Origin: a virus
Lineage: Duplodnaviria; Heunggongvirae; Uroviricota; Caudoviricetes
IMG/VR virus record: IMGVR_UViG_2630968933_000007
Span: 32,001 to 96,000 of that record
DNA length: 64,000 bases
Strand: one strand, 5' to 3'
The first letter of the stretch is position 1. Each line of letters begins with the position of its first letter. The position numbers were made by a program. Positions 21,001 to 27,000 of this stretch are shown here, piece by piece.

Positions 21001-24000
21001 AACCCGTCGCGAAGTTGTTGAACGTCCGGTGCCTATGGCAATGATGGCGGATCGCTACTTCACCACCAAAAAGGACGGCAAAACTTACTACATTAAACTT
21101 CATGATCCGCGCCTGATGCGTGCGATGAAGAACATGGGGCCGGAAACCAGTAACGCCGTAATCCGTACGCTGGGGAAAGTTAACCGTTTCCTGGCAACGG
21201 TGAACACGTCGTATAACCCGGAATTTCTGGTCAGTAACTTCATCCGTGACGTGCAGACGGCGGTGATGAACCTGAAGGCGGAGCAGGGAAGGAGCGACGG
21301 TAAACTGAAAGGGCTGGATAACTTATCCGCCCTGGCTGTAGTCAAAGACAGCCGTTCTGCAATGTCAGCCGTGTACGCCAGTCTGCGTGGCAAAACCCTC
21401 ACGGGCAAAGGCGCACAGTGGCAGAAAGTGTGGAAAGAGTTTGTTGAGGACGGAGGTAAAACCGGCTGGTTTAACATGGGTGACCTTGAAGGCCAGAAGA
21501 AGGAAATGGATCGCCTTGTATCGCTGGCGAAGGGAGGATGGAAAGGCCAGAGTATCGGTGCATGGCATTCGTTCCTGAACCTGGTCGAGGATGCCAACGG
21601 CGCGGTTGAAAACGCTCTGCGTCTTTCTGCCTATAAACACGCCCGTGATGCCGGTTTGTCACGCCAGCAGGCGGCATCTCTTGCCAAAAACATGACGGTG
21701 AACTTTAACCGTCGTGGTGAGCAGGGAGCGCTGATGAACTCGCTGTATATGTTTGCCAACGCCAGCATTCAGGGGACCGCAAACCTGGTGAGAACGCTCG
21801 GACATCTTAATGGCGACGGGCCGTTACCGGAGCGCCTTCGCTGGAAGAATCTCAATGTACCGCAGAAAATCGCGCTTGCAGCTGTGGGAGCGGGTTATCT
21901 GCTTGGCTCGCTTAACCGCAGTGTTGCGGGGGAGGATGATGACGGGGTTAACTGGTACGACAAGGTGCCGTATCATGTGAAAGAGCGTAACCTCGTCATT
22001 ATGAAATCGATGTTCGGGGGCAGGGCCGGAGAGTACTGGAGTATTCCTCTGCCTTACGGGTACAACGTTTTCTTCCTGCTCGGGCATACCTCTGAAGGTG
22101 TGGCTGCTGGTGACCTGACGGCGTCCCGTGCTGCCGGTAATGTTGTCGGTGGTATCCTGGGGGCATTCAGCCCGATTGGCAGTGAGACGTCGGAAACGCT
22201 GTCCGGGGCATTGCTGAAAAATGCAGCACCGACAATTCTGCGTCCGTTTGCGAATCTTGCCATGAACGAAAACTTCATGGGGGCGCAGATTTACCAGGAG
22301 AACATGCCGTTTGGTACACCAAAACCTGACAGCCAGCTGGGAAGACGTTCAACGCCAGAAGCGTACAAGGCGTTTGCATCCTGGCTGAATGCGTTCTCAG
22401 GTGGCAGCCAGTATCGTCCCGGCGCGGTGGATATCACACCGGAATCGCTGAAATTCTGGATTGACTATATCTCCGGAGGGACAGGGCGCTTCATTTCCAA
22501 AACCACAGATGCGGCGGTGAAATCGCTGAACGGTATTGATATACCGGAGCAGCAGGTGCCCTTCCTGGGGAAAATTTCGGGTGAGGTGATGCCGTATGCA
22601 GACCAGCAGAAGATGTACGACCGGATGACAGAGGTTGCGCAGTATCACGCAGAGCTGAAGAGTCTGACCGGTGCAGAAAGAACGGCGTTCATTGACGAGA
22701 ACAACGGAAAATTGTTGATGAACGGGCTTATGCAGGATACCCGGAAGAGACTGAAGGATTTGCGCAAACAGCGCGATGCCATTTATGCCGACAGTTCTCT
22801 CAGTCTGGCGCAGCAGGCGGCGATGGTGAAATCGGTAGAGCGGGATATGAAGGTTGCCGTGGATCGCTTTAACCGCGAGTACAACAAAAAAGTGGGAGTG
22901 GATTAACAGAAATGGCCCCGTACGGAAGTGCGGGGCTGATTAAGAAATAAACACACATTAACCTGTAATAACCGGAGCTATTAACATATAGTCAGAAAGA
23001 GTATTTCATGTGAGACAGAGAGCCGATTTATGTTTAATGAAGAAAAAGTTGCGTAAATGGCAGCGTATTTGCTGAAAAAACATGGCGGATCTATGCGTTT
23101 CATTAAGCTGATGTATCTCTCTGACCGCAAAGCAATGGAGTTGTATGGTTTTCCCATTAGTGGTGATCATTATTTCTCTATGAACAAAGGACCCGTTTTA
23201 TCGCAGACATATTCTTTGGTTAAGGATGGAAGTGAAAACGAGTACAGTCCGTGGGAATCATGGATATCTGATGTAGCGGATCATAAGGTTGAAATGTGGC
23301 GTACATTTTCTTCTGTTGATGAGCTGGGGGAGTTATCGCCCGCAGAAATAGAGTCAATGGACATAATTTTTGGTCAATATGGAGGTTGGGATGCGTTCAG
23401 GCTTTGTGATGAAACTCACAGAATTTGCGGTGAGTGGCGCGATCCGCATGGTTCATCAATTCCAATCAGCCTTAAGGATATATTTATTGCTCTTGGAAAG
23501 TCGCCAGAAGCAGCAACAGTAATGGCGAATAGCATTTATGCGCAAAATAATCTTGATATATTATTAAGTGATCTGAGGTAGTCGGGATGATGTTCAGCCC
23601 TTATTTGTATTTACCGGGGAGGGAAGATGTTTAATTCCGATTCCCCGGCTCCACAGGCCTAACCTAACTTTATGTAACAGTCCATGCAGGGCTGAAATCT
23701 GCCTGCTGAAATAACTCCGTTAGCCCGCTAATCTGCTTTAACCTCAGAACTTCATCCTGGTCCATCCCCAGTTCTGTTCCGATACGTTCATCAGTCCAGC
23801 CAAGACGTGAAAGATCTCTGACAATATCAGACATTGAGGTTATCTGGTGTTTCCCCCTGGCTCTGTTATGTCGGATAGTCGCGGCAATACGTGAGGTTTG
23901 TCCCTTTCGGTCTGGATTAATACAGGTTACTGGTAGCCAGCCTTTCAGGCGTTTTCCAGTAACTGTTCTTCTACCTAGTAACTGCCTATGAAAACCATCC

Positions 24001-27000
24001 ACCACCAGGTAATGGCTTGTTTCTTCCGAAACAACAATTGGTTGAGTAAAACCGTCTTTTTCCAGAGATTGTTTCAGTAATTTTTTTTCGCTTGGGGCCA
24101 TGACATTGGGATTATAATCGTTAGCGACAATTTCATCCGCTTTTACCCACAGCACACAGTCCACTGGTTCTTGAGCAAAGGGGCTGATCTCATGGAGTAC
24201 GCAGCGGAGATGGTTCAGGGCCTGTATGGTTTTCTCTTCAGATTGTTCCTGACTGAAGTACTGTCGAATCATCTTGCTCAGCACCTCCACCTCTGGTGTC
24301 ACAGAATTCCCCATTCCTTCCTCCTTTCATTCATACGCTGCAGGTAACGTTCATAGTGCCGGGGTTTGTTGGGGCTGAAGGAGAGCGTTCGGCACCAGAA
24401 ATCATTCTTTATGAGAGTCTTACAAATACGTCGCCAGGAGGGAACATCCCGGCAGCCCAGATCATTTTCCTGTTCATCCGGGATATCATCCGGGAATCCC
24501 CGGTTCTGATACCAGCGCAGGTAAACTGCTATCTTGTTGCGGTAGTGTTCAGCCGTTCTTTCCGGCATTACGTCCAGCAGGAAGAACGCATAGCTGCGCC
24601 AGGTATGATGGGATGGTTTTGACATCCGTTTACGCAGGGCAAAATAGGCCCCGCTTTCATTGGCATAAAGAGCCCCACTGGCAGCACCAGATACTCGTTC
24701 ACACATCCGTGCCCAAGTTTCTGGCTCCAGAACATGATAAAGCCATAGTCCCTTACGCTGTTCCGGGCCAAAAGGCTCACAGACACGCATATTACGTAGA
24801 GGAATGCCTGCGCGGTACATCAAATCATACAGAGGATTGTAGATTGCACAGGTTTTAGCGTTATATACCCAGATATCGTTGGTTTTCCAGTCATACAGCG
24901 GATACATGGTGTAGTAAAAACCTTCAGGTGACGCCGTGGTCCAGGGTTTATCATCTGCATATCTCAGTTTTCGTTGGGAAACCAGTCCCATAAATCTGTT
25001 AAGAGATTCATCCGCGCGGACTCCAGTCAGTATTGCCACGCTACATTGGTTACTTGCGAACCAGGAAGAAAAAGCCGGGACAAATTCTTCAAAAGTCATG
25101 GCGTAGCGGTAAAAGGGGAAATACGCCATATCAGTAATAGCATCTTCCGGTGGCTGTCGAACCCACTCTACACCGGGCTCCCAGCATATCCACTCAGGCT
25201 GAAACTGCGAGACACCATTTACTGTCGTCAGGGGAAGTGCAACCCAGTAAAAGGTATCTGTTACATCTTGGTACATCATCCGCATCTTCTGTATATGATC
25301 AATGGTGCATTGATACTGGGCTTCCCAGTCAATGAACAATACAGAAAAACGACGTTTCTTCCTGTAGGCCACTTCGGCTACAAGATGGAAAAGTACAGTG
25401 GAATCTTTACCGCCAGAAAAAGATAAACATACAGAAGAGAATGTTTCAAACAACCATTCAATGCGGTGAATGGCTGCTGACAAAACATCTTCTCCAGTTC
25501 TGATTTTTGTTATAGTTACCGGCATACAATCTGATAAAAATAGCGAGGGTTTGCATTTTACCTAGTAACGTTATGTAACTATTTTTTTGAATAAAGGCAA
25601 TGAGATAATGATAAAAAATGTTTATCTAATGTACTGAGCTCTTCTCTTTATTGTATTAACTCTTCGATTTCAGCGGCGTTGTCGTTCAGGTATAAAAAAA
25701 GGAGCCGAAGCTCCTTTGGTATCAGAATTCAAATTGTCTTGCCCGCAGGCTTTTCAGCATTGGTCTGGCCCGCTGAACTACGAAACTCGACTGGTCAAGC
25801 CGTGCCGCCTCTCTCAGTAGCACATCTCTGTTCTTCGTCACCATGTAGATAGTCTCAAACGCAATGTCATACAGCTTGTTCGTGTATGAGGAGTTCAGCT
25901 CTTTCATTATGGGGTACAGCTGCTTGCTAAGGTCCTGGGCTTTTTCCATCCAGAGCTGCATGTAGCAAAGGAGGATGATTTCCTCGGCTGTGAATTGCGG
26001 CTGTGGTTCTGCTTGTACTGGCTGAATGTTGCGAAGTTTCTTTTCGCACTCGATGAAGTAGCGGCGGATCTGGCGACCTTTTTCGTTACGTTCAACCATC
26101 GCAAGCTCTTTGGCTGTGTCGAGGGTGAGGTGGTAATCCTTGCGGCGGCGGCCTGGAGTTTTCGCCAAATTTGGCGAAAATAGAATGTAGTCTAAATTTT
26201 CTACGAATCCATACTCGTTTAGCCTGGCCCGTATCCAGTTAGAAAAATCTTTACCTACCTCTAAAAATCCATGCAAATCACGCGCGTTCACCAGAAGCGT
26301 AGGTTCATTTGAGATTGTACCTTCAAACACAGGGATGAGTTGAGTGGTCATGATGACCTCCTTTGGCTTTTTTCGAGAAATGCCACCACAAGATGTGGTG
26401 CCGGGAGGCTCGAAACGGCCCAAAAGATACCGCGGACTTATTCCCCTTGCGGGTGTTGTATTCGTCGCCCTCCCGACATTGATCGGGGATGTGACCGCAC
26501 ACTGTGCTATCACTGAATAACAGGCATAAAAAATCCAACACTGACGGGGTTGGTTTAATCCGCTTTTGGGAGGTTTTCGAGGCCTCGGCGCGGAGTATAG
26601 TCAGTATTGGACGCAGTCGTCAACCATCGCAAGCTCTTTGGCTGTGTCGAGGGTGAGGTGGTATTCCTTGCGGTTGTGACCGCCTCTACCTTTTGCTTCC
26701 CGAATTTGGGAAGCAATCATATAGTCCTGATTTTCAACGAAACCATATTCAGCAATACGTTCTGTTATCCACGATGCAAAGCGTTTACCAACCCCAAGGA
26801 AAGCGTGTAGATTGCGAGCATTGCATAGAAGGGCTGCTTGGTTTGAGATAGAACCGTTGAATACGGGGATGAGTTGACTGGTCATGATGACCTCCTTATT
26901 TGTTTAGTTTATAACCGCCAGTTAGTAGCTGGCGGTCGGGTGTCAACTGAGCCAAATAAGAAGCTCTGGGCATATTCCCCTTGCGGGTGTTGTATTACGC

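Follow-up and report, generated by a model that had tools for sequence, protein, structure and literature searches.

ibrAB in the cargo slot of an Stx-like Escherichia coli prophage, a candidate ATP-dependent nucleic-acid-modifying module

Introduction

What does a phage gain from a gene pair that joins a protein of the phosphoadenosine phosphosulfate (PAPS) reductase family to a ParB-like protein? The question is posed by a 64,000-nucleotide (nt) stretch of DNA (positions 32,001 to 96,000 of IMG/VR virus record IMGVR_UViG_2630968933_000007; hereafter the window), whose minus strand encodes such a pair between positions 23670 and 25525. A first-pass annotation had described the two genes as an ibrA/ibrB-type pair, and the resemblance turned out to go further than type. 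An exact-sequence look-up returned the UniRef entries 'IbrA' (Q8KU24_ECOLX) and 'IbrB' (Q8KU23_ECOLX), and an identical copy in Escherichia phage PhiR5_2 is annotated as IbrA/IbrB, co-activators of prophage gene expression. As the two proteins match entries already filed under these names exactly, the locus is, at the level of protein sequence, the already-named ibrAB and not a new system. We tentatively read IbrAB as an ATP-dependent nucleic-acid-modifying module, acting most likely on DNA, with ParB-like targeting and a likely anti-defence role (probability about 0.4).

The genes were named in 2002, and the IbrA and IbrB proteins of E. coli ECOR-9 are regulators of immunoglobulin-binding proteins (COG3969 / DUF3440 plus IbrB-like). 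Sandt et al. are reported to have found in 2002 that ibrAB activates expression of eib (immunoglobulin-binding) genes. An 'IbrAB island' is likewise reported to adjoin antirepressor genes in Stx-phage-like DNA. The window locus is a rediscovery; its value lies in a widespread phage and enterobacterial family whose enzymology was never worked out. Because databases label this family 'PAPS reductase', viromics papers count such genes as sulfur auxiliary metabolic genes (AMGs), a reading against which the absence of a conserved cysteine described below argues.

Results

Identity of the two genes and their relatives in E. coli

The two minus-strand open reading frames, of 408 and 214 amino acids (aa), lie exactly where they were first annotated and overlap by 16 nt. 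Their translations contain both motifs originally quoted for them, SFSGGKDS at IbrA residues 35-42 and VVDGFHRQ at IbrB residues 104-111. The features of the pair are as follows.

24299-25525, minus strand: ibrA (408 aa), with an N-terminal PAPS-reductase-fold domain (residues ~1-240) and a C-terminal helical DUF3440 domain (~240-408)
25400-25423, minus strand: PP-loop SFSGGKDS, IbrA residues 35-42, predicted to bind ATP phosphate
24302-24808, minus strand: DUF3440 C-terminal domain of IbrA, helical, with conserved R247, P251, P268, W271, R277, G280, P304 and D375
24299-24314, minus strand: overlap of the ibrA stop region and the ibrB start, 16 nt
23670-24314, minus strand: ibrB (214 aa), with a ParB/Srx-like N-terminal domain followed by a predicted helix-turn-helix (HTH); the C-terminal dimerisation domain is absent
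23985-23999, minus strand: DGFHR motif, IbrB residues 106-110, counterpart of ParB box II (GERRxR) and of the Srx/DndB-type DGxHR
23853-23873, minus strand: RHNRARG motif, IbrB residues 148-154, the second invariant block, at the ParB box III position
23721-23837, minus strand: predicted HTH region, IbrB residues ~160-198, with conserved G183, M184, E188, R191, Q194 and G197

Both are genuine genes rather than chance reading frames, because their homologues number in the thousands. The 16-nt overlap implies that their translation may be coupled. RefSeq names the ibrA product 'phosphoadenosine phosphosulfate reductase' and the ibrB product 'IbrB-like domain-containing protein'. Compared with the ECOR-9 proteins, the window pair has the exact protein sequences filed under those names and the same overlapping gene order, and no difference could be detected at the sequence level; the window pair, however, lies inside the complete-looking right arm of a prophage and not on an isolated island.

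Three layers of the family can be distinguished in E. coli. The ybdNM operon of the core genome, whose products share 57% (IbrA) and 61% (IbrB) aa identity with the window pair, was detected in essentially all genomes; with all homologues counted, 5420 of 5426 genomes hold at least one. An island-type ibrAB (91% identity for IbrA, 87-88% for IbrB) occurs in 2055 of the 5426, or ~38% of the complete genomes of E. coli; in O157:H7, for instance, it adjoins a perC-like gene. The exact window allele is confined to 19 E. coli genomes and PhiR5_2. YbdN and YbdM of E. coli K-12 resemble the window pair in the two-domain architecture of IbrA, the type of IbrB and the overlapping operon, but their genes belong to the chromosomal core genome, next to citR and metabolic genes, and are not on a mobile element; they are not known to have a phenotype other than a mild cost on overexpression (PMC8764527). 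The ybdNM operon is repressed by the LysR regulator YbdO/CitR (PMC9068703).

IbrA retains an ATP site and lacks family-wide cysteines

Profile searches supported the assignment of the 408-aa protein to the PAPS-reductase family, with Pfam PAPS_reduct matching at 1.5e-16 and 61.3 bits, above its gathering cut-off of 22.5, and DUF3440 at 5.2e-33 and 114.8 bits (cut-off 25). An AlphaFold2 model built on an alignment of 96 sequences had a predicted local distance difference test score (pLDDT) of 83.5 and a predicted template-modelling score (pTM) of 0.80. The fold is that of the PAPS-reductase superfamily, nearest to FMN adenylyltransferase, CysD and CysH. Among solved structures, the modelled N-terminal domain appears closest to yeast Fad1, followed by TilS, TtuA, and GMP and NAD synthetases. 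For the DUF3440 domain no structural relative was found, and the segment searched alone showed no credible second family.

Conservation was assessed in 82 diverse IbrA representatives, down to ~28% identity. The PP-loop residues S37, G38, G39, K40, D41 and S42 are 91-98% conserved in this set, and G39, K40 and S42 are invariant in the IbrA family alignment. The other motifs of the nucleotide site are near-invariant as well: D66, E68, G168xRxxESxxR177, D212-W213, D217, N230 and Y233. IbrA also carries a Trp-rich insert (W94, W112, W115, W121).

The cysteines behave differently. None is conserved family-wide, the highest conservation at any position being 49%. Three of them, C249, C368 and C378 (codons at window ~24779-24781, 24422-24424 and 24392-24394), are invariant or at least 90% conserved within the E. 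coli-like subfamily (42-92% identity), and may have a subfamily-specific structural or metal role. We considered an Fe-S site formed by these three residues as a feature of the family and rejected it since the positions vary independently: all eight presence/absence combinations occur, 9 of the 82 sequences have none of the three, and no co-variation was found.

CysH and adenosine phosphosulfate (APS) reductases need a catalytic C-terminal cysteine, in an ECGLH-type motif, which forms a thiosulfonate intermediate. This residue has no counterpart in IbrA among the 82 representatives. The curated models agree: IbrA scored 17.8 bits against the DndC model TIGR03183 (cut-off 290.4) and 31-33 bits against CysH models (cut-offs 154-254). 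Given the lack of a conserved cysteine and these scores, IbrA is, as judged from sequence, neither a CysH-type PAPS reductase, which makes its RefSeq name a misnomer, nor a DndC-type sulfur inserter. From the known chemistry of the PP-loop superfamily, a canonical PP-loop without cysteines fits cleavage of ATP between the alpha and beta phosphates, with AMP transfer or adenylation of a substrate. IbrA further matched PHROG 2302, which is placed in the AMG category, and PHROG 424 at 6.4e-19.

IbrB belongs to the ParB/Srx superfamily

The description of the 214-aa protein as ParB/Srx-like stood up at the profile level. Pfam ParB_N scored 18.9 bits on IbrB, under its cut-off of 26.3, yet IbrB matched PHROG 2159 'ParB-like partition protein' at 4.9e-91, and a profile of 30 diverse IbrB sequences searched against the PDB retrieved ParB (4umk, 7e-6), Noc and the ParB/Srx-fold kinase SbnI. 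Weaker matches were to PHROG 498, which comprises ParB-domain DNA methyltransferases (7.9e-9), and to PHROG 6831 'transcriptional regulator' (6.9e-4, on residues 160-193).

Four features are conserved in 86 diverse IbrB sequences: NDYNPN, DGFHR, RHNRARG(x)H and a tail reading LGMdxDEvLRLxQixGL. D106, G107, H109 and R110 are 99% conserved and R148, H149, N150, A152, R153, G154 and H156 are 98-99% conserved; both groups are invariant in a second IbrB alignment. Alignment with ParB and Noc places NDYNPN at ParB box I, DGFHR at box II and the tail at the HTH; RHNRARG is probably the counterpart of box III, an assignment based on alignment order. Three marks of a partition ParB are lacking. Box II reads DGFHR instead of GERRxRA, no parA gene is adjacent, and IbrB ends ~15 residues past the HTH-like region, without the C-terminal dimerisation domain. 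As the profile-level match (7e-6 to 4umk) is real despite the sub-threshold ParB_N score, we regard IbrB as a member of the ParB/Srx superfamily that, from its motifs, is not a partition ParB. The AlphaFold2 model of IbrB was not used, as it reached a pLDDT of only 48 on a shallow alignment (74-92% identity).

Pairing and neighbourhoods across phages

Searching phage genomes with tblastn and scanning IMG/VR yielded 85 viral loci, in 83 of which IbrA was called. They come from phages of Streptococcus, Mycobacterium, Microcystis and Flavobacterium and from uncultured viruses. A same-strand IbrB-like gene is present in 82 of the 83 loci, directly adjacent in 70; in the sole unpaired locus IbrA is cut near the contig start. 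The pairing is near-obligate, and is seen in phages of Proteobacteria, Firmicutes, Actinobacteria, Cyanobacteria and Bacteroidetes. In most of the 70 adjacent pairs the two genes overlap, or are separated, by only a few nt (-1, -4, -16, -19).

Two architectures were found. The E. coli type runs from IbrA to IbrB. The other has IbrB upstream of IbrA together with a third domain of ~130 aa (WDKWECYPxGFYE ... WKNSCEHxLTN ... NRxAW), which is present in 54 of the 85 loci and absent from the window, E. coli ibrAB and ybdNM. In some loci this domain forms the C-terminal part of a fused IbrB of ~380 aa, and in others a small gene of its own, between IbrB and IbrA, encodes it; it has no Pfam or PDB relative. 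Examples are L035:5552-5974 and L052:970-2115, beside 52 other viral loci; gp106 of mycobacteriophage Gaia is among the proteins with this domain.

The surroundings of phage ibrAB are usually replication and recombination genes. Recurrent neighbours are DNA enzymes, namely SNF2/DEAD helicases, a DnaB-like helicase, NinG, ERF and RecT/YqaJ, and the largest neighbour cluster other than IbrB is a helicase (13 of 83 loci), nothing else being commoner. An SNF2/DEAD helicase lies directly upstream in 9 of the 23 IbrA-to-IbrB loci and on three further contigs, which suggests a three-gene SNF2-IbrA-IbrB variant. The SNF2 helicase, of ~460-490 aa, often overlaps IbrA (L094:4541-6004, L095:4541-6004, L093:4554-6017, L065:3462-4850 and others).

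Comparison with known systems

The pair had also been likened to DndC/DndB. The likeness holds at the superfamily level only: as in DndC/DndB (and SspD), a PP-loop ATPase of the PAPS-reductase superfamily is paired with a DGxHR protein of the ParB superfamily. DndC needs a three-cysteine [4Fe-4S] site and a cysteine dyad for sulfur transfer (PMC10853773), whereas IbrA has neither, and DUF3440 replaces the C-terminal part of DndC. The DndC model of PADLOC matched a partial region of IbrA at 20.6 bits (4.5e-5), and TIGR03183 matched IbrA at 1.2e-3. On IbrB, no PADLOC model, DndB included, matched at E <= 0.01, and what it shares with DndB is the generic DGxHR. No gene for DndA/IscS, DndD, DndE, SspB or SspC lies near the window pair, and no such cluster is conserved in the 83 loci. 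PADLOC returned no system-level match for the pair; BrxP of BREX type 4 gave 28 bits on IbrA residues 17-96 only, with no BREX genes nearby. A toxin-antitoxin or abortive-infection role was considered and rejected, as there was no PADLOC match and overexpression of YbdM, which has been called completely uncharacterised, costs only ~10% growth (PMC8764527).

Other systems offer partial parallels. In 7-deazaguanine DNA modification, the enzyme DpdA relies on the ParB-like NTPase DpdB (PMC12839542), but DpdA is a homologue of tRNA-guanine transglycosylase and not a PP-loop enzyme, and the window has no preQ0 pathway genes. Eukaryote-type FMN adenylyltransferase (the PAPS domain of FAD synthase) and CysD act on small-molecule substrates and, unlike IbrA, have no DUF3440, Trp-rich insert or ParB-like partner. 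A fusion of a PAPS domain to Dam in Vibrio crassostreae podophages conferred escape from the host's Dnd system (bioRxiv 10.1101/2021.05.05.442762). There, too, a PAPS-reductase-superfamily domain is phage-borne and lies in a variable region, and IbrA matches the related PHROG 424; that protein is, however, a methyltransferase fusion without DUF3440 or an IbrB partner, and the domain that gives the phenotype was not resolved. PAPS-reductase-like genes have also been reported in Aca-regulated anti-defence hotspots (PMC13551039).

Prophage setting of the window pair

The window is E. coli chromosome. Positions 1 to ~27,100 form the late, right arm of a 933W/Stx-like (Sepvirinae) prophage encoding a collagen-repeat tail fibre, a YadA-anchor adhesin, a tail-tip fibre, Lom, Hok and a 2788-aa LPD38 polyvalent protein. 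Beyond it come a ynfG fragment, the host genes ynfF to rspB and, from 37.7 kb, a DicB/Qin-type lambdoid prophage. The genes around ibrAB are listed here.

23057-23581, plus strand: Panacea/SocA-domain gene, convergent with ibrB (Pfam SocA_Panacea 2.4e-19)
25526-25697, minus strand: ibrA upstream region, AT-rich (33% GC), presumed to hold the operon promoter
25698-25717, minus strand: hairpin resembling an intrinsic terminator, AAAGGAGCTTCGGCTCCTTT, with a T-run, directly 3' of the antirepressor gene
25722-26513, minus strand: phage antirepressor gene ant (AntA + P22_AR_C); the shorter RefSeq form corresponds to window 25722-26351
26601-26885, minus strand: second ant copy, truncated

The location of the pair at the accessory end of the prophage was confirmed and can be specified: the pair occupies the interval that separates the giant LPD38 gene from the antirepressor genes (22907-25721). 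This interval is a variable cargo site of Sepvirinae phages, since in Shigella phage POCJ13 (L091:1722-5040) the same position, between the giant gene and the ant genes, is taken by unrelated genes, EaA and three hypotheticals. Only 1 of 173 matching phage records has ibrAB at the Sepvirinae cargo slot. PhiR5_2, a plaque-forming phage whose record gives E. coli K-12 MG1655 as host, has the block from the Panacea gene through ibrB and ibrA to ant with 100% identity. The GC content of the cargo block is 41-47% (41.5% for the Panacea gene), compared with 54.6% for the adjacent structural gene. Because the hairpin and T-run stand directly 3' of ant and a spacer of 33% GC precedes ibrA, ibrAB looks like its own transcription unit, which the terminator-like hairpin presumably insulates from upstream transcription. 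A scan for sigma-70 consensus promoters gave none in the region upstream of ibrA, where the operon promoter is presumed to lie.

The adhesin gene (4273-5352, plus strand) encodes a YadA membrane anchor (4.6e-16) and lies 18.3 kb from ibrAB in the same prophage, so the adhesin, its distance and its shared prophage are as first described. The epithet Eib-like was only partly borne out: similarity to EibD is limited to one short stretch, residues 245-291 (E 3e-7). In view of the anchor and this short segment, we identify the product, from sequence, as a trimeric-autotransporter adhesin at the site that eib genes occupy, with immunoglobulin binding not implied. The adhesin region is AT-rich (38.7% GC at 4001-5000, 39% upstream). 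Comparison of the ibrA and adhesin upstream regions found no shared 11-mers, and the 9-10-mers in common were AT-rich and of low complexity.

Proposed function of IbrAB

We propose that IbrAB may be a two-protein module, complete in itself, which phages and other mobile elements carry as cargo and whose target is nucleic acid, probably DNA. IbrB, with a ParB/Srx-fold nucleoside triphosphate (NTP)-binding domain and an HTH, would be the DNA-binding subunit that brings IbrA to its target or switches it on, possibly within a physical complex. IbrA would use ATP to adenylate a target group or to transfer AMP, leaving the group substituted or marked without sulfur chemistry. The phage would benefit if its DNA were thereby protected from host defences, as anti-restriction or anti-defence, and increased eib expression could follow indirectly, either from the DNA mark or because IbrB binds silenced, AT-rich prophage DNA.

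Several observations point to this module. The ATP-site motifs of IbrA are kept across the 82 representatives, while IbrB keeps NDYNPN, DGFHR and RHNRARG at the positions of the ParB NTP boxes as well as the HTH-like tail; the two pair in nearly every viral locus, their recurrent neighbours are DNA enzymes, and IbrB matches the DNA methyltransferases of PHROG 498. The window pair also stands as a separate unit of low GC content, at a site where a related phage has other cargo. Precedents for a ParB-like partner of a DNA-modifying enzyme are DpdB/DpdA (PMC12839542) and DndB/DndC (PMC10853773). The anti-defence part draws on the PAPS-domain::Dam escape (bioRxiv 10.1101/2021.05.05.442762) and the Aca hotspots (PMC13551039).

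Other points weigh against it. The first-pass annotation had left the biochemistry of such pairs open, and our literature search on the family indeed yielded no biochemical study, that is, no paper demonstrating a modification, a substrate or a complex for any member. The only experimental phenotype is, to our knowledge, transcriptional, namely the eib activation ascribed to Sandt et al. in 2002. That ybdNM is a near-universal chromosomal operon controlled by a LysR repressor suits a housekeeping or regulatory function no less than an anti-defence one. Both tRNA and small molecules are frequent substrates of PP-loop enzymes, and some proteins with the ParB/Srx fold are kinases, as the SbnI match of the IbrB profile illustrates, so that DNA is not the sole candidate substrate. 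The lack of a PADLOC system-level match and the unusable IbrB model also count here. A bolder form of the proposal, which we consider possible if doubtful, would make IbrAB the core of an undescribed, sulfur-independent and adenylation-driven modification of DNA or DNA ends that serves defence escape in many phage phyla, with eib activation as an epigenetic side effect; the ParB-like NTPase would be its targeting subunit, and most phage versions would add the third ~130-aa domain. PhiR5_2, which carries an identical copy, is a ready system for the modification and anti-defence hypothesis.

The main rival gives the leading part to IbrB. It would be a transcriptional co-activator or anti-silencer comparable to the ParB-family regulators KorB and Shigella VirB. 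By attaching to DNA, perhaps in the manner of an NTP-dependent clamp, it would lift H-NS-type silencing from AT-rich prophage genes, the YadA/Eib-like adhesin gene among them, with IbrA supplying or controlling its nucleotide ligand or modifying IbrB itself. This would account directly for eib activation, the single phenotype mentioned above, and is in keeping with the conserved HTH-like tail, the AT-rich adhesin region in the same prophage as ibrAB and the dedicated repressor of ybdNM; in addition, ibrB is induced jointly with perC upon epithelial contact (PMC7649339). It leaves unexplained, however, why the partner is invariably an intact ATP-using enzyme in lytic and temperate phages of five phyla, which have no eib genes and whose loci sit mostly within replication and recombination modules, beside helicases. 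Neither VirB nor KorB is among the PDB matches of the IbrB profile, and the ibrA and adhesin upstream regions share no motif of at least 11 nt. On balance we hold anti-silencing to be rather unlikely. The same HTH and DNA-enzyme neighbourhoods, which point to nucleic acid, weaken the case for a small-molecule or nucleotide pair, in which IbrA would make an adenylylated product, as CysD and FMN adenylyltransferase do, and IbrB would be an Srx/SerK-type phosphotransferase or NTPase, the product being a signal or a depleted metabolite in phage-host conflict or metabolism. With a helicase as the top other neighbour and no conserved transporter or biosynthetic partner, this is less probable again.

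Sulfur chemistry fares worse in either form. Dnd/Ssp-like DNA phosphorothioation by a minimal DndC/DndB-type pair could appeal to the shared superfamilies and to the weak DndC matches (TIGR03183 and PADLOC), but IbrA scores 17.8 bits where the DndC equivalog demands 290.4 and has no family-wide cysteine where DndC needs both an Fe-S site and a dyad (PMC10853773), and neither the dnd and ssp partner genes nor a PADLOC match for IbrB was found; we judge it very improbable. Even less credit is due to an AMG encoding a true CysH PAPS reductase for sulfate assimilation. That the RefSeq product name, the AMG category of PHROG 2302 and the fold match to CysH all suggest it is outweighed by the missing catalytic C-terminal cysteine, by scores far under the CysH cut-offs, and by three traits foreign to CysH: the ATP-type PP-loop, the additional DUF3440 domain and the obligate partner resembling ParB.

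Further features of the window

Panacea domains are usually antitoxins of two-gene toxin-antitoxin pairs. No toxin-sized reading frame adjoins the Panacea gene of the window on the same strand, for which reason it looks like an orphan or has an unrecognised partner. It travels with ibrAB: PhiR5_2 has it, and so do all 19 E. coli genomes in which 80% or more of the 3.6-kb query block is present. Directly before the cargo slot, the 2788-aa LPD38-domain gene (14540-22906, plus strand) is intact, whereas its copy in E. coli G1/2 is frameshifted.

Elsewhere in the prophage arm are a Lom/Ail outer-membrane protein gene (10172-10906, plus strand) and a Hok/Gef toxin gene (~11156-11296, plus strand) that is annotated in the G1/2 record; together with the YadA-anchor adhesin these are genes of the lysogenic-conversion type. 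The truncated ant copy and a fragment of ynfG, which encodes a 4Fe-4S protein (27331-27414), adjoin ynfF and mark the junction of prophage and host, which suggests that the prophage either integrated within ynfG or took its place. After 10 kb of host genes, a second and unrelated lambdoid prophage of the Qin/DicB type occupies 37696-64000, with genes for an integrase, an excisionase and an exonuclease as well as ydfD, dicB, dicA/dicC and a ydaT-like gene.

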